DNA from: Candidatus Edwardsbacteria bacterium
GTDB lineage: Bacteria > Edwardsbacteria > AC1 > EtOH8
Assembly: GCA_020053305.1 (NCBI GenBank)
Contig: JAGVNJ010000074.1
Span: 7,348 to 71,347, forward strand
DNA length: 64,000 bases
Reading direction: 5' to 3'
Shown piece after piece: positions 2,951 to 62,786 of the stretch. The translations under genes and the position numbers were made by a program. The notes beneath the pieces were generated by a model, which saw only the letters and a list, made by a program, of their open reading frames with translations, ran no database searches and was not told where the DNA came from. The first letter of the stretch is position 1; the number at the start of each line of letters is the position of its first letter.

Positions 2951-4039
2951 ATGCTGTATCTGCTGTTATATCCCTTGGCCGATAAGATCCACTTCTTCAA
3001 TCTGTTCCGTTATATCACCTTCCGTTCGGCCTATGCCCTGGTGACGGCGCTGCTGATATCCTTCCTGATAGGGCCCTACATGATCCGGTGGCTTAAAAAA
3101 CTAAGGATCGGAGATACCGGCCGGGAGGACGCCCCGGACCACCATAAAAAAAAGGCCGGCACCCCCACCATGGGCGGGTTGATAATCCTGGCGGCCATAA
3201 TGATCCCGGTGCTATTATGGGCCGACTTAAGCAACCGTTACATCCAGATAGCCTCGCTGGCCACCCTGTGCCTGGGGGCCATCGGCTTCAGCGACGATTA
3301 CCTGAAGGTTGTCAAGAAACAGCCCAAGGGTCTGGTGGGCAGGAAAAAGCTGGCCGGCCAGATCGCCCTGTCGCTGGTGATAGGAGCCATTCTGGTCATC
3401 TATCCGTTGAACCCGGAGTTCGCCACCAAGACCAATTTTCTGTTCTTTAAAAATATCTTCGTCGATCTGGCCTGGTGGCTGTTCATTCCTTTTGTGGTGA
3501 TGGTCATAGTGGGGACCTCCAATGCCGTCAACCTGACCGACGGCCTGGACGGTCTGGCTATCGGGGTGGTGCTGTTCGCCGCCGCGGCCTATGCCGTGAT
3601 GTGCTATTTTGCCGGGAATTACAAGCTGGCCAGCTATCTCAACATCATATTCATGAAGGGCTCGGGAGAGCTGACCGTATTCTGTTCGGCCATTGTCGGG
3701 GCTTCGCTGGGCTTCCTGTGGTATAACGCCCATCCGGCCGAGATCATGATGGGCGACACCGGGTCGCTGGCCCTGGGCGGGGCCATAGGCACCACCGCCG
3801 TTCTGATCAAGCAGGAGATACTGCTGCTGATCGTGGGCGGGGTATTCGTGATGGAGGCCCTGTCGGTGATCCTGCAGGTGGCTTCCTTCAAACTGACCGG
3901 AAAACGGATCTTCAGAATGGCCCCCATCCACCATCATTTTACCATGAAAGGCTGGAGCGAGGAAAAGATAGTCACCCGCTTCTGGATAATAGCCCTGATC
4001 TGCGCCCTGGTGGCCCTCAGCACCCTGAAGATAAGATAG
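2951..4039 (+). CDS. mraY: phospho-N-acetylmuramoyl-pentapeptide transferase
   Basis: Polytopic membrane protein with the MraY signature stretches (NAVNLTDGLDGLA, MGDTGSLALGG), in dcw position. Confidence 0.95.
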   Translation: MLYLLLYPLADKIHFFNLFRYITFRSAYALVTALLISFLIGPYMIRWLKKLRIGDTGREDAPDHHKKKAGTPTMGGLIILAAIMIPVLLWADLSNRYIQIASLATLCLGAIGFSDDYLKVVKKQPKGLVGRKKLAGQIALSLVIGAILVIYPLNPEFATKTNFLFFKNIFVDLAWWLFIPFVVMVIVGTSNAVNLTDGLDGLAIGVVLFAAAAYAVMCYFAGNYKLASYLNIIFMKGSGELTVFCSAIVGASLGFLWYNAHPAEIMMGDTGSLALGGAIGTTAVLIKQEILLLIVGGVFVMEALSVILQVASFKLTGKRIFRMAPIHHHFTMKGWSEEKIVTRFWIIALICALVALSTLKIR

Positions 4040-12056: not shown

Positions 12057-13331
12057 ATGGCCGAGCAGATAAAACTTTTGGAACAGCAGATCGCCGAGGC
12101 GATCGCCGAGCCCTTGTACGGCATCATTCAGAACGAACCCAAGAAATCAAATAAAGGAGAAGAGAGTATGCTGGAATTCGAAGAGGATGTTATCAGCGAA
12201 CGCTGCAACATCAAGGTGGTGGGAGTGGGCGGCGGAGGCGGCAACGCCGTCAACCGGATGGTGGAGGCCGGCCTGAACGGGGTGGACTTCATCGCCGTCA
12301 ATACCGACCTGCAGGTGCTGAGGAAATCCCTGGCCGGCCAGAAACTGCAGATCGGGCACAAGCTGACCAGGGGCCTGGGATCGGGCGGCAATCCCGAGAT
12401 CGGGCGCCGGGCCTTCGAGGAGGACAAGGCCCGGGTGGCCGAGATGATCTCGGGCAGCGACATGCTGTTCATCACCGCCGGGATGGGCGGGGGCACCGGA
12501 ACCGGGGCCGCCCCGATGGTGGCCGATCTGGCCCGGGAGATGAACATCCTGACTGTGGCGGTGGTCACCAAGCCCTTCGAATGGGAGGGCCGCAAGAGGA
12601 TCCTGCAGTCCGAGGAGGGCATCCGGGACCTGAAGGAACGGGTGGACACCCTGATCGTCATCCCCAACCAGCGGGTGCTGTCAGTGGTGGGCAAACAGAC
12701 CAAGCTGACCGAATCTTTCCGAATCATAGACGACGTGCTGCTCAAGGCCACCCGCGGCATCTCCGACCTGATCACCGTTCCCGGACTGGTCAACGTGGAC
12801 TTCGCCGACGTCCGCGCGGTGATGCTGGAGCGGGGCGACGCCCTGATGGGGGTGGGAATCGGCACCGGCGAGAACCGCTCCATCACTGCGGCCGAGGAGG
12901 CCATCGCCAACACCCTGCTGGAGGGGGTTTCCATCAAGGGGGCCAAGGCCATTTTGCTGAACATCTCGGCCTCGGATGAGATGACTCTGACCGAGGTCAA
13001 CGAGGTGGCCTCGGTTATCCGCAGCGCGGCCGGCGAGGAGGCCAACCTGATCTTCGGAACGGTGATAGATCCCGAGGCCGGGGACAATATGAGCGTGACG
13101 GTGATAGCCACCGGCCTGGGCAACGGCGCACCCAAGATGGAGAAGGATCTTCCCGACAACAACCGGATAGATTTCCCCCAGTCCTTCCGCAAGGAGAACC
13201 TGGCTCCGGGGACCTTCCAGCGCAAGGAACAGCGCTCCAACATCCAGACCATTGTCACCAAAGGCCAGGTCAGCGCGGTAAAGCAGGACGATTTGGAGAT
13301 ACCCACCTACATGCGCCGCCTGATGGACTGA
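12057..13331 (+). CDS. ftsZ: cell division GTPase FtsZ
   Basis: Tubulin signature GGGTGTG, the NTDLQ motif and a C-terminal FtsA-binding peptide (DLEIPTYMRR). A Shine-Dalgarno lies at 12044-12049. An alternative ATG at 12168 is also preceded by GGAG. Confidence 0.95.
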   Translation: MAEQIKLLEQQIAEAIAEPLYGIIQNEPKKSNKGEESMLEFEEDVISERCNIKVVGVGGGGGNAVNRMVEAGLNGVDFIAVNTDLQVLRKSLAGQKLQIGHKLTRGLGSGGNPEIGRRAFEEDKARVAEMISGSDMLFITAGMGGGTGTGAAPMVADLAREMNILTVAVVTKPFEWEGRKRILQSEEGIRDLKERVDTLIVIPNQRVLSVVGKQTKLTESFRIIDDVLLKATRGISDLITVPGLVNVDFADVRAVMLERGDALMGVGIGTGENRSITAAEEAIANTLLEGVSIKGAKAILLNISASDEMTLTEVNEVASVIRSAAGEEANLIFGTVIDPEAGDNMSVTVIATGLGNGAPKMEKDLPDNNRIDFPQSFRKENLAPGTFQRKEQRSNIQTIVTKGQVSAVKQDDLEIPTYMRRLMD

Positions 13332-13424
13332 TCCCGGTTCACGGATAACGGATAATAGGGTAAAGATGTAATAATCCAGGGCTGTCTGCTATCTCTTCGG
13401 CAGACGGCCGGAAGTGGTTTGATC

Positions 13425-13515
13425 TCTTCTTTATTTGACCTCACCCCTCCGCCATTAGCAGGTGGTCCATATAGGCGGGCAAGCTGCCCCTCTTCTATTA
13501 AAACAGGAGAGGGGT
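13425..13515. repeat. gene-less copy of DUF559-module end (TTGACCTCACCCCT + CCCCTCT..AGAGGGG hairpin)
   Basis: The 14-mer TTGACCTCACCCCT is identical at 13425 and 53745. The hairpin CCCCTCT(14 nt)AGAGGGG at 13477-13504 matches those flanking the DUF559 genes. Confidence 0.5.
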
Positions 13516-13636
13516 TTTGTATGCCCGGTGGTTTGACCACCCCCGTCCCTCCCCGCAACGGAGAGGGCTTTTGTATTCCCTTCCCGAGGCGGGAAGAGGC
13601 AGGGGTTGGGTCCGTATCACCACGACCGCCAAACGA

Positions 13637-13664
13637 GTCATTCCTGTGCAAACAGGAATCCAGG
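13637..13664. repeat. dispersed hairpin GTCATTCC-N12-GGAATCCAGG (copy 1)
   Basis: GTCATTCCTGTGCAAACAGGAATCCAGG; a second copy is at 28649-28676. Confidence 0.5.
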
Positions 13665-13722
13665 CCTATATCATTGCCAATTTATAGGGGTGATTAGTGA
13701 GTCGCCCGTACCACCAATTACC

Positions 13723-13752
13723 GTAGGGACACGGCATGCCGTTCGTCCCTAC
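13723..13752. repeat. REP-like palindrome GTAGGGACACGGCATGCCGTTCGTCCCTAC
   Basis: 8-bp terminal arms GTAGGGAC/GTCCCTAC with an internal palindromic core ACGGCATGCCGT. Confidence 0.6.
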
Positions 13753-13921
13753 ATGCATGCCCGGCAGGTTTGACCGCCCCCCTCCCCATGGGGAAGTATT
13801 TTTATTTCCCCCTTGATCTCCCCAAAAATATTTAAAAAATCTTCATATGGGTCATTGACAAATTTTAATAAATTGTATTAGTATAATTACCTGGCAATGT
13901 CTATATCATACATCTGAATTT

Positions 13922-13949
13922 GCAGGGGCAGGATGCATACTGCCCCTGC
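13922..13949. repeat. REP-like palindrome GCAGGGGCAGGATGCATACTGCCCCTGC
   Basis: Near-perfect 28-nt palindrome centred on ATGCAT; a 37-nt near-identical copy lies inside the RAYT gene. Confidence 0.7.
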
Positions 13950-14026
13950 GGGTACAAAACATAGAAATCAAATTGTCATGTCCGTAAACAATTCCAAACA
14001 TAAACGTCGTTCTATCCGCCTGCCAA

Positions 14027-14076
14027 CCTCACCCATCTCCCTCTCCTAATGCTTTAGGAGAGGGAGATGGGTGAGG
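14027..14076. repeat. 50-nt perfect hairpin (23-bp stem) of the CCTCACCC..CCCTCTCC family, inserted at RAYT 5' end
   Basis: CCTCACCCATCTCCCTCTCCTAA-tgct-TTAGGAGAGGGAGATGGGTGAGG. A TAA inside the right arm terminates the in-frame upstream RAYT reading frame. Confidence 0.75.
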
Positions 14077-14148
14077 TAAGGGGCGTATTACATAACAATC
14101 TGCGCCCAAGACCGCAAATGTATATTTGGTGCAATCGCCGATGGGCGG

Positions 14149-14583
14149 ATGGTATTAAACCCATTCGGCGAAATTGCCCGAAACGAATGGGTTAAAACCG
14201 GCGAATTACGGCCCTATGTCATTCCGGATGTATTTGTGATTATGCCGAATCATATTCATGGAATATTGATAATAACCGATGATGACCATTGTAGGGGCAC
14301 GATGCATCGTGCCCCTACGGGTACGACCGAACGTTTTGGCAAACCTGTCGCCGGATCATTGCCGACCATCATCCGTTGTTACACCGCGGCGGTGACCCGC
14401 CAGATAAATAAATTGCGCAATACCCCGGGCCATAAAATATGGCAACGTAATTATTACGAACACATCATCCGCAACGATAAATCATACGATAAAATCAGAC
14501 AATACATCATGGAAAACCCGCTGTATTGGCCGCAGGATGAGGAAAATCCCAACCGAGCAATTCCTAAAAACGCCATATCATAA
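14149..14583 (+). CDS. REP-associated tyrosine transposase (RAYT / IS200-like HUH Y1), probably 5'-truncated
   Basis: HUH motif (IMPNHIHGILII) and a C-terminal catalytic Tyr region (NYYEHIIRNDKSYDKIRQYIMENPLYW). The first beta-strand (..AYYITICAQDRKCIFG) is encoded in-frame upstream of the ATG but is cut off by a stop inside an inserted 50-bp hairpin. Confidence 0.7.
   Translation: MVLNPFGEIARNEWVKTGELRPYVIPDVFVIMPNHIHGILIITDDDHCRGTMHRAPTGTTERFGKPVAGSLPTIIRCYTAAVTRQINKLRNTPGHKIWQRNYYEHIIRNDKSYDKIRQYIMENPLYWPQDEENPNRAIPKNAIS
14291..14318. repeat. perfect 28-nt REP-like palindrome GTAGGGGCACGATGCATCGTGCCCCTAC inside RAYT coding sequence
   Basis: Perfect palindrome. It is translated as ..HCRGTMHRAPTGT.. 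between the HUH and Tyr motifs. Confidence 0.75.
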
Positions 14584-14589
14584 CAGGTC

Positions 14590-15870
14590 GTGAAAACCTT
14601 AATATTCATAATATTTACGGTCCTTTCTCTTCCCACCTTAGCCGTTGCCTCCTTTGAAGAGATCCAGACCGATGCCCGGCTCTACGGCCTGGCCGGGGCC
14701 GGGGTAGCGCTATCCGATATGACCGGCAGCGACCTGTATAATCCGGCCCTTCCGGCTCTGGCAGGCGACCTCTCGGCCTCCAGCGGCAGTTCGATTCCCT
14801 TCGGCTTGATGGACCTGACGGCTTTCTCCGGCGCCTATGCCCATCGTAAAGATAAAATAGGTGTGGGCGCAATGCTGGCTACTATGGGCGGCCGTCTTTA
14901 CCGGGAAAATATTTTAAAAGGGGCCTTCTCCTGCCTCCTGATAGATGAAGCGGCGGTGGGAGTTTCCCTTAACTGCTATCAGCTGAACATCGAAAGGTAC
15001 GGCTCGGCGGCCGGAATGGGGCTGGACCTGGGATTGCTGGGCAAACCGGCAGAATGGCTGGCGCTGGGAATGAAGGCCGCAAACGTGAACCGGCCGACCA
15101 TCGGCCAAAATGGTGAGGAGATCTCGCAAAGCCTTTCGCTGGGCGGGGCGGTGGAGCCCTTGGATGAAATTACATTATCCTGGGAACTGTATTGCCAGCG
15201 GGATTGGCCCTGCCAGGTCCGCATCGGGCAGGAATACCGCTATCGTAATCTGTTAGTCCTTCGGGCCGGATTCTGCGATCGGCCCAATGCGTCCAGCCTG
15301 GGCTTCGGGGTGATCCATAGGAATTTAAGGCTGGATTATGCCGTCAGGACCCACCCCGATCTGGGGCTATCGCACTGCCTGAGCCTGAACTATATCACCC
15401 AGAGGATATTTGCCAGACCGGAGGAGGTCAGGATAGAGGAGGCCCCAACCGTAAAAATCCTCGAAAAGATAGACCCCAACAGCGCTTCGTTCGATGACCT
15501 CAGTCTTTTGCCGGGCATCGGGCCCCAATCGGCCGCGGATATCATCTCTTTTCGCGACAGCATCGGGCCGTTCAAATATCTAGATGACCTGGCCGAAGTC
15601 AAGGGAATCGGCCGGGCGATGCTGGAGAGAATGGCTCCGTATGTGACGCTGGAATACAAACCCTACATCCCGCTCATTATCAACATCAACCAGGCATCGG
15701 CCCGGGAATTGGCCGCCCTGCCGGGCATCGGGCCCAAAGCTGCCGGGGACATTGCCGCCTACCGCCAGGAGAACGGACCATTCCGGAACCTGGAGGATAT
15801 AATGAACGTCAAAGGCATCGGGCGGAGGACCTACGAAGCGATAAAGAATCTTATCACCATCGGGCCATGA
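14590..15870 (+). CDS. secreted/outer-membrane beta-barrel-like protein with two C-terminal ComEA-type helix-hairpin-helix DNA-binding motifs
   Basis: Signal peptide and a Gly/aromatic-rich N-terminal domain. Two HhH motifs (LLPGIGPQSAADIISFR...VKGIGRAMLERM and LPGIGPKAAGDIAAYR...VKGIGRRTYEAI) are typical of ComEA. Confidence 0.6.
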   Translation: MKTLIFIIFTVLSLPTLAVASFEEIQTDARLYGLAGAGVALSDMTGSDLYNPALPALAGDLSASSGSSIPFGLMDLTAFSGAYAHRKDKIGVGAMLATMGGRLYRENILKGAFSCLLIDEAAVGVSLNCYQLNIERYGSAAGMGLDLGLLGKPAEWLALGMKAANVNRPTIGQNGEEISQSLSLGGAVEPLDEITLSWELYCQRDWPCQVRIGQEYRYRNLLVLRAGFCDRPNASSLGFGVIHRNLRLDYAVRTHPDLGLSHCLSLNYITQRIFARPEEVRIEEAPTVKILEKIDPNSASFDDLSLLPGIGPQSAADIISFRDSIGPFKYLDDLAEVKGIGRAMLERMAPYVTLEYKPYIPLIININQASARELAALPGIGPKAAGDIAAYRQENGPFRNLEDIMNVKGIGRRTYEAIKNLITIGP

Positions 15871-28505: not shown

Positions 28506-28648
28506 TACCTTTCCCCACGCTTGCGCCCCGCCACACTTCGACTATGACTTTGGCCAACTCTGTCCGGCGGCTCAGTGCCCGGCGGGGCTACAGCGCGCAG
28601 GCACGAAAGACGCGGAACGACGCGAAAAATATTTTCCGTTGCCCAATC

Positions 28649-28676
28649 GTCATTCCCATGAAAATGGGAATCCAGG
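28649..28676. repeat. dispersed hairpin GTCATTCC-N12-GGAATCCAGG (copy 2)
   Basis: GTCATTCCCATGAAAATGGGAATCCAGG, immediately upstream of the AT-rich beta-propeller gene. Confidence 0.5.
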
Positions 28677-31991: not shown

Positions 31992-33476
31992 ATGAAAAAG
32001 AACATCCTGGCATTTTCCCTGCTGGCCTTTTTTTCCTGCAGCAGCCCGCAGCAGCAGACCTTGCGGATAGCCATCAGCGAAGGACTGATCAGCTTTGACC
32101 CCCATACCCAGGACGAGCTGGTCACCATGGAGGTTCTGGGCAATGTCTACGAAACCCTGGTATCTTTCGATGTCGACATGCAATTCGTGCCGATGCTGTG
32201 CACCGGATACAGCAACGTCACCGACCGGGCCTGGCGTTTTTATATCAGGCCGGGGGTGAAATTCCATAACGGTAAATCCCTGTCGGCGGCGGATGTCATC
32301 TACAGCCTGGGCCGGGCCAGGAACCACCGGGCATCGGTCTTTAAAAGCATGCTGGCCGGGATCGATAGTATACAAAAAGTGGACAGCCTGACCGTCGAGA
32401 TATCAACCGCCAAACCGCGCCCCAACCTGATAAACACCCTGGCCATGATAAGCATCATCCCCGCCCAATCCGATCCGGCAAAACAGCCGGTAGGCACCGG
32501 GCCCTATTCCGTCGCTGTATTCAATGGCCGGGATATCCTGTATCTGGACAAGTTCAAGAGTTATTGGGGCGAGGAGCCGTTCTTCAATAAAGCGGAGTTC
32601 CATATAATCCCGGAGGATTCCCTGCGGGTGGAAAAACTGCTGAGCGGCAAGATGGATATCGATGCCAATGTCATGGAAAACTACCGCACCAGGCTGTCCG
32701 GCGATGACAAGATAAACCTGGTGACCAAGCCGGGCGCCACCATTACCATCTTAGGGTTGAATACCTCTGGCAAATTCAATGACAATCCTCTATCCGATAT
32801 CCGGCTGCGCCAGGCGATATCCCTGGCCCTAAACCGCCGGGAGATGGTCGCCAAAGCCTGCCACGGACACGCTGTTCCCGCCAACCAGATAGCAACCCAG
32901 GCCATATTCGGCTATGATCCGGACCTTCCTGAAATTGAGCAGAATATTGAAAAAGCCCGCCTGCTTATTCGCCACTTGAAAGCGCCCGATCCGATCGAAC
33001 TGACCATAATGGTATCGACCGCCGCCTGGTTCGAAGGACAGATCCTGGCGGAATTCCTGGCGCCCATAGGAGTAAAGCTGACGGTAGACACACTATCGTG
33101 GACGGAATTGTATAATTCCATCGAGTCCGGGCAGGCAAAATTTTATCTGATGGGTTTTGCTTACAGTTTCGGAGATGCCAGCGAACTGTTAAACGATATG
33201 GTCCATTCCAAAAGCGGCACCCAGGATTTCGGCATCCGCAACCTGGCGGGGTACATTAATCCCAAACTTGATCAAATCATCGAACAGGCCGACCGCGAGT
33301 TTGATCCGGCCAGGCGTAAGCAGTTACTGCAGGAGGCCATCAGGATAACGACCAACGACCTTCCCTTTATCCCCCTGTATATCCGGGACAGCAGCTACGG
33401 ATTGCGCCAGGGCCTGGCCTGGCAGCAGAAGACAGCTTCGGTTATGCTGGTCAAAGAGATCCACCCTCAAAAATAA
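31992..33476 (+). CDS. ABC-type periplasmic solute-binding protein, family 5 (peptide/nickel type), lipoprotein
   Basis: Lipobox (FFSC) and the SBP_bac_5 architecture. No adjacent permease or ATPase genes. Confidence 0.8.
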   Translation: MKKNILAFSLLAFFSCSSPQQQTLRIAISEGLISFDPHTQDELVTMEVLGNVYETLVSFDVDMQFVPMLCTGYSNVTDRAWRFYIRPGVKFHNGKSLSAADVIYSLGRARNHRASVFKSMLAGIDSIQKVDSLTVEISTAKPRPNLINTLAMISIIPAQSDPAKQPVGTGPYSVAVFNGRDILYLDKFKSYWGEEPFFNKAEFHIIPEDSLRVEKLLSGKMDIDANVMENYRTRLSGDDKINLVTKPGATITILGLNTSGKFNDNPLSDIRLRQAISLALNRREMVAKACHGHAVPANQIATQAIFGYDPDLPEIEQNIEKARLLIRHLKAPDPIELTIMVSTAAWFEGQILAEFLAPIGVKLTVDTLSWTELYNSIESGQAKFYLMGFAYSFGDASELLNDMVHSKSGTQDFGIRNLAGYINPKLDQIIEQADREFDPARRKQLLQEAIRITTNDLPFIPLYIRDSSYGLRQGLAWQQKTASVMLVKEIHPQK

Positions 33477-47984: not shown

Positions 47985-48030
47985 ATCCGACCCCTCCCTG
48001 CCCTCCCCCGGTGGGAGAGGGATTGTTATT

Positions 48031-48902: not shown

Positions 48903-48996
48903 GTCATTGCGAGAAAACTTCAAAGCAGAGCAGACGAAGCAATCTGGACAATAGGGGATTGCTTCATCAGTCGGATAAAAGTCGGTTCGCAATGAC
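48903..48996. mobile_element. 94-bp gene-less MITE-like copy of the GIY-YIG element termini
   Basis: GTCATTGCGAG-N-CGAAGCAATC-N11-GGATTGCTTCA-N-TCGCAATGAC: two nested perfect inverted repeats identical to the ends flanking both GIY-YIG genes. Confidence 0.65.
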
Positions 48997-49029
48997 CACT
49001 GGTAAATTATAAATCAACAAAAGGATAAT

Positions 49030-50129: not shown

Positions 50130-50147
50130 CAATCAACCCGACTTTTA

Positions 50148-50530
50148 GTCATTGTGTAACGAAGCAATCTTCTTGTTGACTTTCAAACCATGGGACGCGA
50201 GTATTATTTCTATATAATGTCAAACAAATGGAACTCGGCATTATATTCAGGCGTGACCAACAATCTCAAGCGCCGCATAGTGGAGCATAAGCAAAAGCGT
50301 CCCGGAAGTTTTACTTCGCGTTATAATATTACAAAACTTGTTTATTTTGAGATATTCAATAATCCCAGGGATGCCATCAAAAGAGAGAAGCAGATCAAGG
50401 CTGGCCCGCGAAAGCAGAAGCAAGAGTTGATCGAAAGCATCAATCCGAAATACAGTGATCTATCAGAGAACCTATAAATAGCCCGGCGGGGATTGCTTCG
50501 TCGCATTCTTTTGAAGCTCCTCGCAATGAC
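50148..50530. mobile_element. TIR-bounded GIY-YIG mini-element, copy 1
   Basis: Left end GTCATTGTGTAACGAAGCAATC (50148-50169); right end GGATTGCTTCG..(20 nt)..TCGCAATGAC (50490-50530). The extended match CTTTTAGTCATTG/CAATGACTAAAAG makes the termini inverted repeats. Confidence 0.65.
50190..50477 (+). CDS. GIY-YIG nuclease domain protein (COG2827/UPF0213-like)
   Basis: YYFYIM...LYSGVTNNLKRRIVEH...KLVYFE.F......REKQIK: GIY-YIG motifs with the catalytic Arg and Glu. Confidence 0.8.
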   Translation: MGREYYFYIMSNKWNSALYSGVTNNLKRRIVEHKQKRPGSFTSRYNITKLVYFEIFNNPRDAIKREKQIKAGPRKQKQELIESINPKYSDLSENL

Positions 50531-51569: not shown

Positions 51570-51969
51570 GTCATTGCGAGTATACTTCCCTGATAAACAA
51601 ATGAAGCAATCCATTTATCATGTTTGGCAAAAAATATTTTGTATATATTCTGGCCAGCAAGAAAAACGGGACTTTGTATGTCGGGGTTACAAACGATCTT
51701 AAGCGCAGGGTGGCCGAACACAGAAACGGAGTGATCCCTGGCTTTGCGAAAAGATATAAAACCTTTTTACTGGTTCATTTTGAAGCGTTTGATGAACCGA
51801 GATTTGCTATTGCTATGGAAAAGCAGTTGAAGGCCGGGTCACGGGCAAATAAAATAAGACTTGTAGAACGGGATAATCCCGATTGGCTCGATCTGTTTGA
51901 AAAGATATAATACAAAGTTGTTATTTGTGGATTGCTTCGTTAGCTATATAAAATCATTCTCGCAATGAC
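51570..51969. mobile_element. TIR-bounded GIY-YIG mini-element, copy 2
   Basis: Left end GTCATTGCGAG..(21)..GAAGCAATC (51570-51611); right end GGATTGCTTCG..(20)..TCGCAATGAC (51929-51969). Confidence 0.65.
51620..51910 (+). CDS. GIY-YIG nuclease domain protein (paralog)
   Basis: KYFVYILASKKNGTLYVGVTNDLKRRVAEH...REKQLK; divergent from copy 1 but collinear with it. Confidence 0.8.
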   Translation: MFGKKYFVYILASKKNGTLYVGVTNDLKRRVAEHRNGVIPGFAKRYKTFLLVHFEAFDEPRFAIAMEKQLKAGSRANKIRLVERDNPDWLDLFEKI

Positions 51970-52038
51970 AGAGGGACAATTTATTTATTATACCCAGAAT
52001 AATATTTCACAAAGACAAAATAGATTGTTTCACAAGTA

Positions 52039-52064
52039 GGGCAATGATGTCGTTTCGCAATGAC
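52039..52064. repeat. solo remnant of GIY-YIG element end (GGGCAATGAtgtcgtTTCGCAATGAC)
   Basis: Matches the right-end motif TCGCAATGAC; lies 15 bp upstream of argS. Confidence 0.4.
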
Positions 52065-53744: not shown

Positions 53745-54266
53745 TTGACCTCACCCCTGCCCCTCTCCAAAGGCATTTGGAGAGGGAGGTTGTAATGAGT
53801 AAAAGCATTTATGGCAAGTACAAAGAATTTTGGTGTCAGCACCGGCCGCCGGATCAAGAACGAAAAACTAGAAATGGCCAAACAAATGCGGCGGGAGATG
53901 ACCTATGCCGAGCGGTGTTTTTGGAACGGGGTCAGGGGCCGCAAACTGCATGGCTTGAAGTTCCGCCGCCAGCAGATCATAGACGGGTTTATAGCTGATT
54001 TCTATTGTAATGAGTTAAGGCTGATTGTTGAGATAGACGGCGGTGTTCATGAGACCCAGAAGGATTACGATAAACTGCGCGACAGGATAATCAGCCGGAA
54101 TGAAATTAAAGTGATCCGGTTTTCCAACGAGTTAGTCGTAGACCAGTTTGATACTGTGGCCAGACGTATTGGTGAACTACGTCCTCCCTCGCCAGGTTTA
54201 CCTGGAGAGAGCCTGCACCGAGATGGCCACAATAAATGACAAACGAAAGTGGGCAGGGGTGAGGTC
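53745..54266. mobile_element. DUF559 endonuclease module bounded by 16-bp inverted repeats and hairpins
   Basis: TTGACCTCACCCCTGCCC (53745-53762) and its reverse complement GGGCAGGGGTGAGGTC (54251-54266). Internal hairpins CCCCTCTCCAAAggcaTTTGGAGAGGG and CCTCCCTCgCCAGGtttaCCTGGAGAGAG sit at the two ends of the gene. Confidence 0.55.
53874..54239 (+). CDS. DUF559 (Vsr/PD-(D/E)xK-like) endonuclease domain protein
   Basis: ..AKQMRREMTYAERCFWNGVRGRKLHGLKFRRQQIIDGFIADFYCNELRLIVEIDGGVHE.. is canonical DUF559. The start is set at the internal ATG 53874; the ORF-track start is 53811. The C-terminal tail PPSPGLPGESLHRDGHNK is encoded by hairpin DNA. Confidence 0.75.
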   Translation: MAKQMRREMTYAERCFWNGVRGRKLHGLKFRRQQIIDGFIADFYCNELRLIVEIDGGVHETQKDYDKLRDRIISRNEIKVIRFSNELVVDQFDTVARRIGELRPPSPGLPGESLHRDGHNK

Positions 54267-62322: not shown

Positions 62323-62326
62323 AAGT

Positions 62327-62786
62327 CCCCTCTGGGCAAGAGGGGATTTAGGGGTGTGTTCATGAAAATCTACTACAATGCCAAACTAAAAGAGAAAGCC
62401 CGCCAGCTGCGGAATAACAGCACTAAAGCAGAGATCCGGCTTTGGCAGCATCTCAGAGGCAAAAAGGTAATGGGCTATGATTTTCACCGGCAAAAGCCGA
62501 TAGGCAATTATATTGCCGATTTTTTCTGTCCCAAATTGAATTTAGCAATAGAGGTTGACGGATACACCCATAGTTTTGAAGAGGTCGTTAAGAAGGATCA
62601 TAAAAAACAGGGCTATCTTGAGGATCTGGGTCTAACAGTTATGCGTTTTAAGGATGAAGAGGTTTTTTATGATATCGATTCGGTGTTGAATGGGATCAAG
62701 CAGTACATAATTGGACACACCCCTCGTTCCCCTCTTTGTAGAGGGGAGGAACACACCCCTAACCCCTCTTATTAGAGGGGAATAGA
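62327..62786. mobile_element. DUF559 endonuclease module with 11-bp inverted repeats and CCCCTCT/AGAGGGG hairpins
   Basis: Left end: CCCCTCTgggcaAGAGGGG followed by AGGGGTGTGTT (62350-62360). Right end: AACACACCCCT (62750-62760), flanked by CCCCTCTttgtAGAGGGG and CCCCTCTtattAGAGGGG. The stop codon lies inside the last hairpin. Confidence 0.55.
62356..62775 (+). CDS. DUF559 (Vsr/PD-(D/E)xK-like) endonuclease domain protein (paralog)
   Basis: ..AKLKEKARQLRNNSTKAEIRLWQHLRGKKVMGYDFHRQKPIGNYIADFFCPKLNLAIEVDGYTH..; the ATG at 62362 is the probable start. The C-terminal tail GHTPRSPLCRGEEHTPNPSY is encoded by hairpins. Confidence 0.75.
   Translation: MFMKIYYNAKLKEKARQLRNNSTKAEIRLWQHLRGKKVMGYDFHRQKPIGNYIADFFCPKLNLAIEVDGYTHSFEEVVKKDHKKQGYLEDLGLTVMRFKDEEVFYDIDSVLNGIKQYIIGHTPRSPLCRGEEHTPNPSY

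Follow-up and report, generated by a model that had tools for sequence, protein, structure and literature searches.

A mosaic of palindromic repeats around a dead REP-associated transposase gene downstream of ftsZ in Candidatus Edwardsbacteria

In this work, we describe the region that follows ftsZ in a 64,000-nt stretch of DNA from a Candidatus Edwardsbacteria bacterium (assembly GCA_020053305.1, contig JAGVNJ010000074.1, positions 7,348 to 71,347). This whole stretch is called the window, and coordinates are positions in it. In our reading, to which we give a probability of roughly 0.7, the region is a repeat mosaic: three families of palindromes, each linked to a small nuclease gene, have piled up round the gene of a REP-associated tyrosine transposase (RAYT; REP, repetitive extragenic palindrome), and a palindrome of one family has killed that gene. 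The families are GTAG-type REPs, an NTS/dRS3-like hairpin (the B hairpin), and pyrimidine-arm palindromes of the type that encloses a DUF559 gene (A-type, or A-like when degenerate). The features are listed in Table 1.

The ftsZ gene, whose product matches the Pfam families Tubulin and FtsZ_C, ends at 13331, and the next conserved gene, encoding a ComEA-like HHH_3 protein, starts at 14590, which leaves an interval of 1,258 nt. A preliminary description, made from the sequence alone, had called the first part of this interval an 820-bp non-coding spacer. In fact, a disrupted RAYT gene runs from 13978 to 14583, and its 5' part takes up 13978-14148; the right edge drawn at 14148 is the first ATG past the disruption. 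The N-terminal 16 codons of the gene occupy 13978-14025 and the rest occupies 14080-14583; the called open reading frame (ORF) of 144 aa at 14149-14583 is a leftover. When its frame is read upstream, it gives MSVNNSKHKRRSIRLP, 18 codons with two stops, and GAYYITICAQDRK.

Homologs of the reconstructed protein are named RayT or REP-associated tyrosine transposase, the best being 88% identical. Against the NCBIfam model REP_Tyr_transpos (NF047646; E = 4e-17), the reconstructed protein and its intact orthologs alike score 58-62 bits, which is under the 80-bit equivalog cut-off. The match to Pfam Y1_Tnp has E = 0.015, and the best solved relative is 4ER8, the TnpA-REP of E. coli (E = 0.0016). Subclass 2.4 of TnpA-Y1 has the motifs NH[IFV]H, WQ and YIxNNP and a length of about 194 aa, and Y-x-x-x-NP is the signature of class 2 (Quentin et al. 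2018, PMC6006769). The protein of the window contains NHIH (MPNHIHGIL), WQ (IWQRNYYEH) and YIMENP; in the last of these, E stands in place of the consensus N, and Y-x-x-x-NP is kept.

The nature of the disruption is seen by comparison with a close relative, L010 (GCA_031082425.1), which has an intact 186-aa transposase at the same locus, next after ftsZ. The L010 allele reads CTGCC-GGGATACAATTATTCCCGGG-AAGGGGCG and codes for L-P-G-Y-N-Y-S-R-E-G-A. In the window, CTGCC is followed by A, a palindrome of 52 nt and then AAGGGGCG; that is, 20 nt have been swapped for 53. The lost 20 nt coded for the motif G/E-Y-D/N-Y (Y-D-Y in at least 90% of 20 homologs), and the palindrome brings in-frame stops at 14047 and 14077. 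The RAYT gene of the window is dead. The hairpin had already been noticed as a perfect one of 50 nt at 14027, and it proves to be a perfect 52-nt palindrome (14026-14077) with 24-bp arms and a 4-nt loop. The RAYT segment that it replaced was itself a small palindrome (CCGGGA...TCCCGG). In two further relatives, the Rifle groundwater assemblies L011 and L012, RAYT is frameshifted by a 1-nt deletion at the same place, which indicates that the locus is decaying independently in two lineages.

The source of the palindrome is suggested by its likeness to the surroundings of DUF559 genes. Its inner hairpin is identical at 26/26 positions, as reverse complement, to the hairpin upstream of the DUF559 gene of locus L135, and its outer arm, inner arm and loop are laid out as around the DUF559 gene, without the gene. 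It is the clearest gene-less copy of the DUF559 module (profile E = 0.004, see below), a link that the preliminary description did not draw.

The REPs of subclass 2.4 are "double-foot", with 5' GT[AG]G and 3' C[TC]AC, and a REP within the RAYT gene has already been published for this subclass (PMC6006769). Two REP-like palindromes had been reported in the spacer, at 13723 and 13922. Both are real (z = -4.1 and -5.6) and are GTAG-type REPs tied to RAYT; a third, at 14291-14318, had been missed. The double foot GTAG...CTAC is present at 13723-13752 and 14291-14318, and in the copy at 13922-13949 the 5' foot has mutated from GTAG to GCAG, giving GCAG...CTGC. The in-gene copy encodes RGTMHRAP, and RGT..RAPT is nearly invariant in 20 homologs; a REP inside the RAYT gene is also found in L001, L003, L010 and L011. 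Together with their flanks, the REPs at 13922 and 14291 form a 36-nt direct repeat of 86% identity (family D2). For the RAYT loci L001 and L002, which have an unrelated gene context, the similarity to the window starts exactly at the 13922-13949 palindrome. RAYT of L003 has a different palindrome, GTAGGGACACGGCATGCCGTGTCCCTAC, the same one both upstream of and inside the gene. Since the window/L001 type and the L003 type each match at both places, the upstream and internal REPs change together. The REP at 13723-13752 is the L003-type RAYT REP except for a 2-nt insertion, and, because it is absent from L010, L011 and L012, it was gained in the window lineage.

In the window, the RAYT gene is single-copy and has no REP downstream of it. 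The G+C content of the RAYT unit is 0.34-0.51, lower than that of its neighbours (0.55-0.69). Elsewhere, RAYT is preceded in L001 (107-4667) and L003 (852-5558) by an MmeI-like restriction-modification fusion gene and a small gene, which in L001 encodes a HEPN protein; A-like and B hairpins lie 3' of RAYT in L001 (4787-5007).

The evidence for accumulation comes from a comparison of the ftsZ 3' flank across relatives, a check that the preliminary description had proposed. Exact look-ups of the FtsZ of the window, of the representative of its cluster and of the 144-aa ORF gave no hit, and relatives were reached via members of the 90%-identity FtsZ cluster, which is named Candidatus Edwardsbacteria. 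The loci compared are those of L010, L011 and L012 together with the more distant L004-L009. The DNA identity of ftsZ to the window is 94.8% for L010, 93.9% for L011, 83.2% for L004 and 81.1% for L006. In the more distant relatives (ftsZ 81-83%), the spacer is 207-285 bp long and has one terminator-like hairpin without RAYT. The window, L010, L011 and L012 all carry the RAYT unit, and they differ upstream of it (alignment A3): L010 has a stem-loop, H0, followed by a single textbook terminator, GGCCCCATCCA-tatt-TGGATGGGGC-TTTTTTATTT; L011 and L012 have H0 followed by three hairpins; and the window has H0 followed by at least six hairpins, plus an extra REP and the palindrome within RAYT. Because the blocks that differ among these close relatives are discrete, an accumulation of elements is supported, and the proposal that small elements pile up at the end of the dcw operon agrees with this rising series at an ftsZ identity of 94-95%. 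The region had also been called an insertion "hotspot or graveyard". The accumulation that this phrase implies is upheld; the right-hand part, however, is a RAYT gene with its own REPs, that is, a REPtron and not stray debris. Copies of the motifs were found elsewhere, the opposite of what the preliminary description had named as speaking against it, namely that no other genomic copies exist. Note that a low-gap-penalty pairwise alignment of the spacer with L004 and L006 was too noisy for homology beyond the terminator and promoter segments, and that the region contains no tRNA gene, tmRNA gene or meaningful tandem array.

The spacer is indeed rich in hairpins. Its 817 nt contain 6 perfect stems of at least 7 bp, where the rest of the window would predict 1.05 (Poisson P = 7.5e-4), and the whole-spacer fold has z = -6.2; the values of single hairpins range from -10.3 (the palindrome in RAYT) to -0.55 (TTCCCG/CGGGAA). 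The preliminary description had counted at least three families. Such families exist, and each matches a repeat flanking a small nuclease gene in the same window; however, the 50-nt hairpin and the DUF559-module end, which had been listed apart, are one family. The nuclease genes paired in this way with the repeat types of the spacer are RAYT (13978), two GIY-YIG genes (50190 and 51620) and the DUF559 gene (53811).

For the B hairpin, GTCATTCC-N12-GGAATCCAGG at 13636-13664, a recurrence had been reported and was located at 28648-28676. Further GTCATTCC...GGAATCCAG hairpins occur at the orthologous site of L011/L012 and in L001/L002, L124 and L136, with stems that vary yet stay paired. In Neisseria, the NTS repeat, with the consensus CGTCATTCCCGCGMAVGCGGGAATCYRG, includes dRS3 and is the single-stranded DNA substrate that SsnA, a GIY-YIG protein of 94 aa, cuts (PMC11893778). 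In a position-by-position comparison with this consensus, the copy at 13636 agrees at 23/28 positions, and two compensatory base pairs account for 4 of the 5 mismatches; the copy at 28648 agrees at 24/28, all 4 mismatches form two compensatory pairs, and dRS3 (ATTCCC-N8-GGGAAT) is fitted exactly. The published degenerate SRM search pattern has its only match in the window at 33408, and this single match is within the chance expectation of 0.29.

The two GIY-YIG genes, 50190-50477 (95 aa) and 51620-51910 (96 aa), are single-domain, and the solved structures nearest to their products are UPF0213 proteins. Both genes are bracketed by inverted GTCATTG...GAAGCAATC(C) elements (50147-50530 and 51570-51970), which share the frame GTCATT...AATC with the B hairpin and have the short form GTCATTGCGAG...GAAGCAATCC. 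In addition, a gene-less inverted pair of the 43-nt GTCATTGCGAG-N22-ACGAAGCAATC element, with the look of a REPIN-like dimer, is found at 48903-48997, and a partial copy of the GIY-YIG-linked 43-nt element lies at 52055 (- strand), before argS.

The reference copy of the A-type palindrome is the one around the DUF559 gene. We take DUF559 to be a small Vsr-like endonuclease fold of the PD-(D/E)XK kind, of unknown function and not a known transposase. The outer arms, perfect over 15 bp, are GACCTCACCCCTGCC (53747-53761) and its reverse complement GGCAGGGGTGAGGTC (54252-54266), and the left arm leads into an inner hairpin, CCCTCTCC-aaaggcattt-GGAGAGGG (53761-53786); in short form, the DUF559-linked hairpin is ACCTCACCCCTGCCCCTCTCC-loop-GGAGAGGG. 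In relatives with 94-96% identical DUF559 proteins, the gene is surrounded by 28-bp perfect inverted repeats, and the arms of close relatives span 22-28 bp. The gene lies within the palindrome's right half (53787-54251 in the window) and has a copy of a 9-nt direct repeat, TGGAGAGGG, on either side. In the relatives, the last DUF559 codons extend into the right arm, and in the window the two are set apart by some 42 additional nt. The element is found directly after argS in the window, L132-L134, L136 and L137, and most of the copies among the relatives, sharing this place, were therefore inherited vertically.

The association between the A-type palindrome and DUF559 was examined from both sides. 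For the repeats, one genome per species was scanned for the left arm, ACCTCACCCNTNNCCCTCTCC, which gave at least 119 stretches. The organisms named among the matches listed belong to Cyanobacteria, Bacteroidota, Chloroflexota, Patescibacteria, Bosea, Acidobacteriota, Ignavibacteria and Planctomycetota; in the same matches, the right inner arm GGAGAGGG follows after a short loop at about 75% of the sites, and no gene family other than DUF559 recurs beside the 124 A-type sites. From this side, the idea that the motif generally lies beside a DUF559 gene had to be rejected (2/124, see below), and the link is visible only from the gene side. There, in a sample of 80 DUF559 relatives from metagenomes, a pyrimidine-arm hairpin is present within 300 nt upstream in 60/80, downstream in 46/80 and on both sides in 36/80. 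For the 56 homologs of less than 50% identity, the corresponding numbers are 42, 42 and 35, and distant homologs keep a related tag, ACTCACCCC. The hairpin density is 3.0 per kb near DUF559; the rest of these loci has 0.08 per kb, and their non-ORF sequence has 0.49 per kb, so that the enrichment is 38-fold against mostly coding sequence and about 6-fold against the fairer non-ORF control.

A profile of the A-type, built solely from hits in other phyla, was then run on the window. The E-values are 3e-8 for the DUF559 left arm, 0.004 and 0.005 for the arms of the 14026 palindrome, and 0.086 for the DUF559 right arm; the hairpins at 13489-13514 and 13547-13567 and the arm at 13436 are marginal (0.28-1.4). 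Six of the nine best hits fall within 13436-14078, although those copies that lie in the left part of the spacer are degenerate. The features that we propose for a DUF559-associated palindrome, namely, a ACCTCACCCC-type tag, a pyrimidine-arm hairpin and a copy that encloses DUF559, are found for 14026-14077 and 53747-54266.

It is conceivable, with somewhat less than an even chance, that DUF559 proteins are the cognate nucleases of this many-phyla repeat family (ACCTCACCCC-type tag and CCCTCTCC...GGAGAGGG hairpin), and that most of the spacer hairpins and the palindrome that killed RAYT are their products. If so, RAYT-REP and Ssn-NTS would be joined by a third partnership of a nuclease with a palindrome, and one selfish repeat system would have disabled another. 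The pairing is the lead that may be new: in the open-access literature we found nothing relevant on the A-type sequence or on DUF559 with hairpins or mobility, which is not proof of novelty.

Some further A-type observations are as follows. Solo pyrimidine-arm hairpins of the CCCCTCT...AGAGGGG type occur elsewhere in the window, at 48001-48021, 62326-62346, 62728-62747 and 62763-62780. At the A-type site 4693 of L085 (Flavobacteriaceae), an ORF of 956 aa with a leucyl-tRNA synthetase-like start has a DUF559-like segment inside, which may be an in-frame insertion or an artefact of stop-to-stop ORF calling. In other phyla, a GTAG-type REP comes directly after, or lies near, the A-type left arm in L073 (~762-782) and L089 (~3835-3855), so the A-type and REP families also meet elsewhere.

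Table 1. Positions of the features in the region after ftsZ and of the DUF559 reference copy
Feature	Position	Strand	Evidence
H0 stem-loop, ftsZ 3' untranslated region, GGCTGTCTGC...GCAGACGGCC, CTTCGG in loop	13380..13409	+	fold z = -4.2
A-like element 1: arm TTGACCTCACCCCT, 38 nt unexplained (13449-13486), hairpin GCCCCTCTTC-TATTAAAAC-AGGAGAGGGG, TTTTG	13435..13519	+	fold z = -3.2
A-like element 2, degenerate: GGTTTGACC-ACCCCCGTCCCTCCCC-GCAAC-GGAGAGGGC, then TTTTG	13530..13573	+	fold z = -1.9; profile E = 0.53
Possible reverse A-like element: CTTCCCG-AGG-CGGGAAG + GGCAGGGGTTGGGT (resembles outer arm GGCAGGGGTGAGGT)	13578..13611	-	sequence reading; low confidence
B hairpin, NTS/dRS3-like: AGTC-ATTCCTGTG-CAAA-CAGGAAT-CCAGG	13636..13664	+	fold z = -3.0
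Solo GTAG double-foot REP, second type: GTAGGGACACGGCATGCCGT-TC-GTCCCTAC	13723..13752		fold z = -4.1
A-like element 3: degenerate TGCATGCCCGGCAGGTTTGACCGCCCCCCTCCCCATGGGG, then hairpin GGGGAAGTA-TTTT-TATTTCCCC	13754..13811	+	fold z = -2.6; families D1, D12
Sigma-70-like promoter: TTGACA, 18-nt spacer, TAGTAT; overlapping TATAAT	13855..13887	+	10/12 consensus positions
REP at 5' end of RAYT unit: GCAGGGGCAGGATGCATACTGCCCCTGC	13922..13949		fold z = -5.6; 28 nt before ATG
RAYT/TnpA-REP pseudogene, TnpA-Y1 subclass 2.4	13978..14583	+	translation, named homologs, NCBIfam, motifs
A-type perfect palindrome: ACCTCACCCATCTCCCTCTCC-TAATGCTTTA-GGAGAGGGAGATGGGTGAGGT	14025..14077		fold z = -10.3; replaces 20 nt of RAYT
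REP in frame inside RAYT: GTAGGGGCACGATGCATCGTGCCCCTAC	14291..14318		perfect palindrome, two 14-nt arms; fold z = -6.0
DUF559 gene (53811-54239) within A-type palindrome, reference copy outside spacer	53747..54266	+	Pfam DUF559 E = 1.9e-32

The remaining parts of the spacer are less uniform in origin. H0 is present in the window, L010, L011 and L004, with 2/11 pairs changed on both sides and the pairing kept; judged from this comparison, it is ancestral and not an inserted repeat, and it may act as a 3'-end element of the ftsZ mRNA. For A-like element 1, the preliminary description had proposed a gene-less copy of the DUF559-module end. This is borne out in that TTGACCTCACCCCT at 13435-13448 is identical to 53745-53758 and CCCCTCT...AGAGGGG is present at 13487-13514; on the other hand, the 14-mer alone is insignificant (BLAST E = 1.6, profile E = 1.4), and the profile matches of the element (E = 0.28 and 1.4) are marginal. 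The TTGACCTCACCCCT arm sits where L010 and L004 carry the left arm of the ftsZ terminator. A-like element 2 belongs to the direct-repeat families D1, D5 and D12, a 33-nt unit of it recurs at 13754-13786 with 85% identity (E = 0.021), and an orthologous hairpin is present in L011. About 33 nt of A-like element 3 are missing from L010 and L011, and the segment 13578-13611 is absent from both. The additional hairpins that had been listed here do not stand up well: TTCCCG/CGGGAA is no better than chance (z = -0.55), and CCCTCCCC/GGAGAGGG is marginal (z = -1.9).

A terminator scan picks the 13486-13515 hairpin followed by TTTGT, and finds 4 sites compared with 1.3 expected. The putative promoter at 13855 is nearly invariant in the window, L010, L011 and L012. 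Upstream of it, the segment 13806-13840, CCCCCTTGATCTCCCCAA, is absent from L010 and L011 and resembles the promoter region of the L006 ComEA-like gene, CCCTTGATTTCTCCAAG; the ancestral promoter may have left this remnant.

These signals bring up the alternative that survives best, in which the hairpins are ordinary cis signals (tandem Rho-independent terminators, attenuators or mRNA stabilisers) that evolved in place via point mutation or local duplication, with no mobile elements. The conservation of H0 with compensatory changes, the terminator score of the 13486-13515 hairpin and the alignment of the arm TTTGACCTCACCC to the L010/L004 terminator arm all agree with it; the local direct repeats (D1, D5, D12) point to segmental duplication, and several A-like copies are not significant singly. 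However, no terminator model explains a 52-nt palindrome that destroys a coding sequence. Moreover, copies of these sequences turn up at unlinked sites and in other phyla, the 13723 REP matches the RAYT REP of another genome, and discrete blocks are present or absent between close relatives. We therefore consider this alternative unlikely.

We regard it as improbable that the spacer is one or more small regulatory RNAs, or another structured RNA, with the hairpins as its domains. The overall fold (z = -6.2), the conserved promoter-like site and the conserved H0 stem-loop would fit such an RNA, but no Rfam gathering score was reached, most of the sequence is missing in relatives with 94-95% identical ftsZ, and the palindromes fold equally on either strand. 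In particular, microRNA models match the 52-nt palindrome on both strands with 20-40 bits (thresholds 60-140); we took these sub-threshold matches to be an artefact expected of any long hairpin.

Metagenome assembly errors, such as a chimeric join or a collapsed repeat, are a very improbable source of the window-specific features. Palindromes and repeats are hard to assemble, the contig is metagenome-derived, and a single contig carries the 144-aa ORF; nevertheless, independent assemblies from other samples (L010, L011, L012) show the same overall layout, the flanks of the palindrome join the RAYT frame precisely on either side, and the repeat types occur in isolate genomes too. Finally, that the ORFs at 13307-13651 (-) and 13419-13697 (+) are real small proteins can practically be dismissed, as the preliminary description had suspected: they are open for 114 and 92 codons, but neither has a Pfam or NCBIfam match, large indels in L010 and L011 break both, and both strands are open because the ORFs are built of palindromic repeats.

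In the mosaic reading, the history of the region would be as follows. The ancestral spacer would have been short, with one conserved stem-loop in the 3' untranslated region, one intrinsic terminator and a promoter. The RAYT unit, made up of a REP hairpin, a subclass 2.4 gene that contains a further REP, and perhaps a promoter of its own, was already in place when the window, L010 and L011 last shared an ancestor; its position is between the ftsZ terminator and the ComEA-like gene. Later, the comparison indicates, the lineages of L011 and the window acquired palindromes belonging to three families: double-foot GTAG REPs of the RAYT substrate type; the NTS/dRS3-like hairpin, of the substrate type of single-domain GIY-YIG Ssn nucleases, with related elements bracketing the genes at 50-52 kb; and pyrimidine-arm palindromes with the ACCTCACCCC tag, of the type enclosing the DUF559 gene at 53.8 kb. 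A palindrome of this third type replaced 20 nt of RAYT and killed the gene.

As for the mechanism of the gains, which we infer, each family may have spread by a hairpin-specific single-strand DNA nuclease or transposase (RAYT, Ssn and possibly DUF559). According to the literature, RAYT and Ssn proteins recognise and cut their own hairpins as single-stranded DNA. New copies would tend to land in or beside existing hairpins, since a hairpin has replaced a hairpin twice, at the small palindrome of RAYT and at the ftsZ terminator. The GC-rich stems and T runs probably serve as tandem terminators or 3'-end stabilisers of the ftsZ transcript, and the 13855 promoter probably drives the RAYT remnant and the ComEA-like gene.

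Several points weigh against the mosaic reading. Mobility was not directly observed, and the gains are deduced from the sequences of three related genomes. There is no target-site duplication around the 14026 palindrome, so that sequence was replaced and not simply inserted. The published SRM pattern matches neither B copy. Among the matches listed, a DUF559 gene lies within 1.2 kb downstream at only 2/124 A-type sites by tblastn and at 1 by phmmer. No GTAG REP was found away from RAYT loci in the 64-kb window and about 100 kb of related loci, so that in this lineage the REPs may be low in copy number. Taken singly, several of the spacer's A-like copies have marginal profile E-values (0.28-1.4), and the TTGACCTCACCCC arm could descend from an old terminator arm, as L010 has TTTGGCCCCATCC there. 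The predicted terminator and promoter roles come from consensus scans only.

The main local result is an annotation correction: the essential ftsZ gene is followed by a decayed REP-transposase gene and stacked palindromes, and the spacer ORFs should not be called proteins. More generally, a candidate phylum known only from metagenomes carries a published RAYT subclass 2.4 arrangement as well as Neisseria-type NTS repeats. In one 64-kb window, three different small nuclease genes are nested in their own kinds of palindromes, and a single intergenic region contains solo copies of all three kinds. If functional, the DUF559 link would give a testable role and a predicted DNA substrate to a very common domain of unknown function, and it could add to the short list of hairpin-specific nucleases useful as tools.

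Among known systems, the RAYT unit is closest to the subclass 2.4 REPtron (group 4 RAYT of Bertels; PMC6006769). It shares with this type NHIH, WQ and Y-x-x-x-NP, a length of about 185 aa, REPs with 5' GTAG and 3' CTAC, an in-gene REP, a RAYT that is single-copy in the window, and a G+C content below that of the neighbours. It differs in that the host, Candidatus Edwardsbacteria, belongs to a phylum not covered in PMC6006769, the gene is dead, the foot of the upstream REP is lost (GCAG), and there is no REP 3' of the gene and no dispersed copy in the sequence examined.

With the NTS/dRS3 and SsnA system (Nat Commun 2025, PMC11893778), the B hairpin shares the frame CGTC-ATTCC(C)...(G)GGAAT-CCAG with compensatory stem differences, and the GIY-YIG genes of the window, at 95-96 aa, share the inverted repeat-gene-repeat layout of ssnA. 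However, these genes are bracketed by longer GTCATTGCGAG-N22-ACGAAGCAATCC elements and not by the short B hairpin, and the SRM pattern misses the B copies.

The 14026 palindrome resembles a MITE (miniature inverted-repeat transposable element): it keeps the arms and inner hairpin of the DUF559 element without the gene, and gene-less A-type copies far outnumber gene-carrying ones. It has inverted arms and related copies, but, unlike a MITE, it lacks a target-site duplication and has taken the place of 20 nt of its target, so that overall it does not qualify as one. Also unlike the parent of a MITE, the DUF559 gene looks inserted into a pre-existing palindrome, because it is flanked by the 9-nt direct repeat. 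Like Rho-independent terminators, the spacer hairpins have GC-rich stems and T runs directly after ftsZ, where L010 has one textbook case; unlike them, they stand several in tandem in the window, with conserved unpaired tags and copies at unlinked sites.

As a whole, the region is most similar to the bacterial interspersed mosaic elements (BIMEs) of E. coli and the intergenic mosaic elements of Neisseria (NIMEs), in which several short palindromic repeat types are likewise clustered intergenically at the 3' end of an operon and vary among close relatives. The differences are that the repeat families are others, that three nuclease-linked families meet in one spacer, and that one copy lies within a gene. 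The region is thus a BIME/NIME-like mosaic of a known kind, in a new phylum, round a REPtron of a known type that is now dead.

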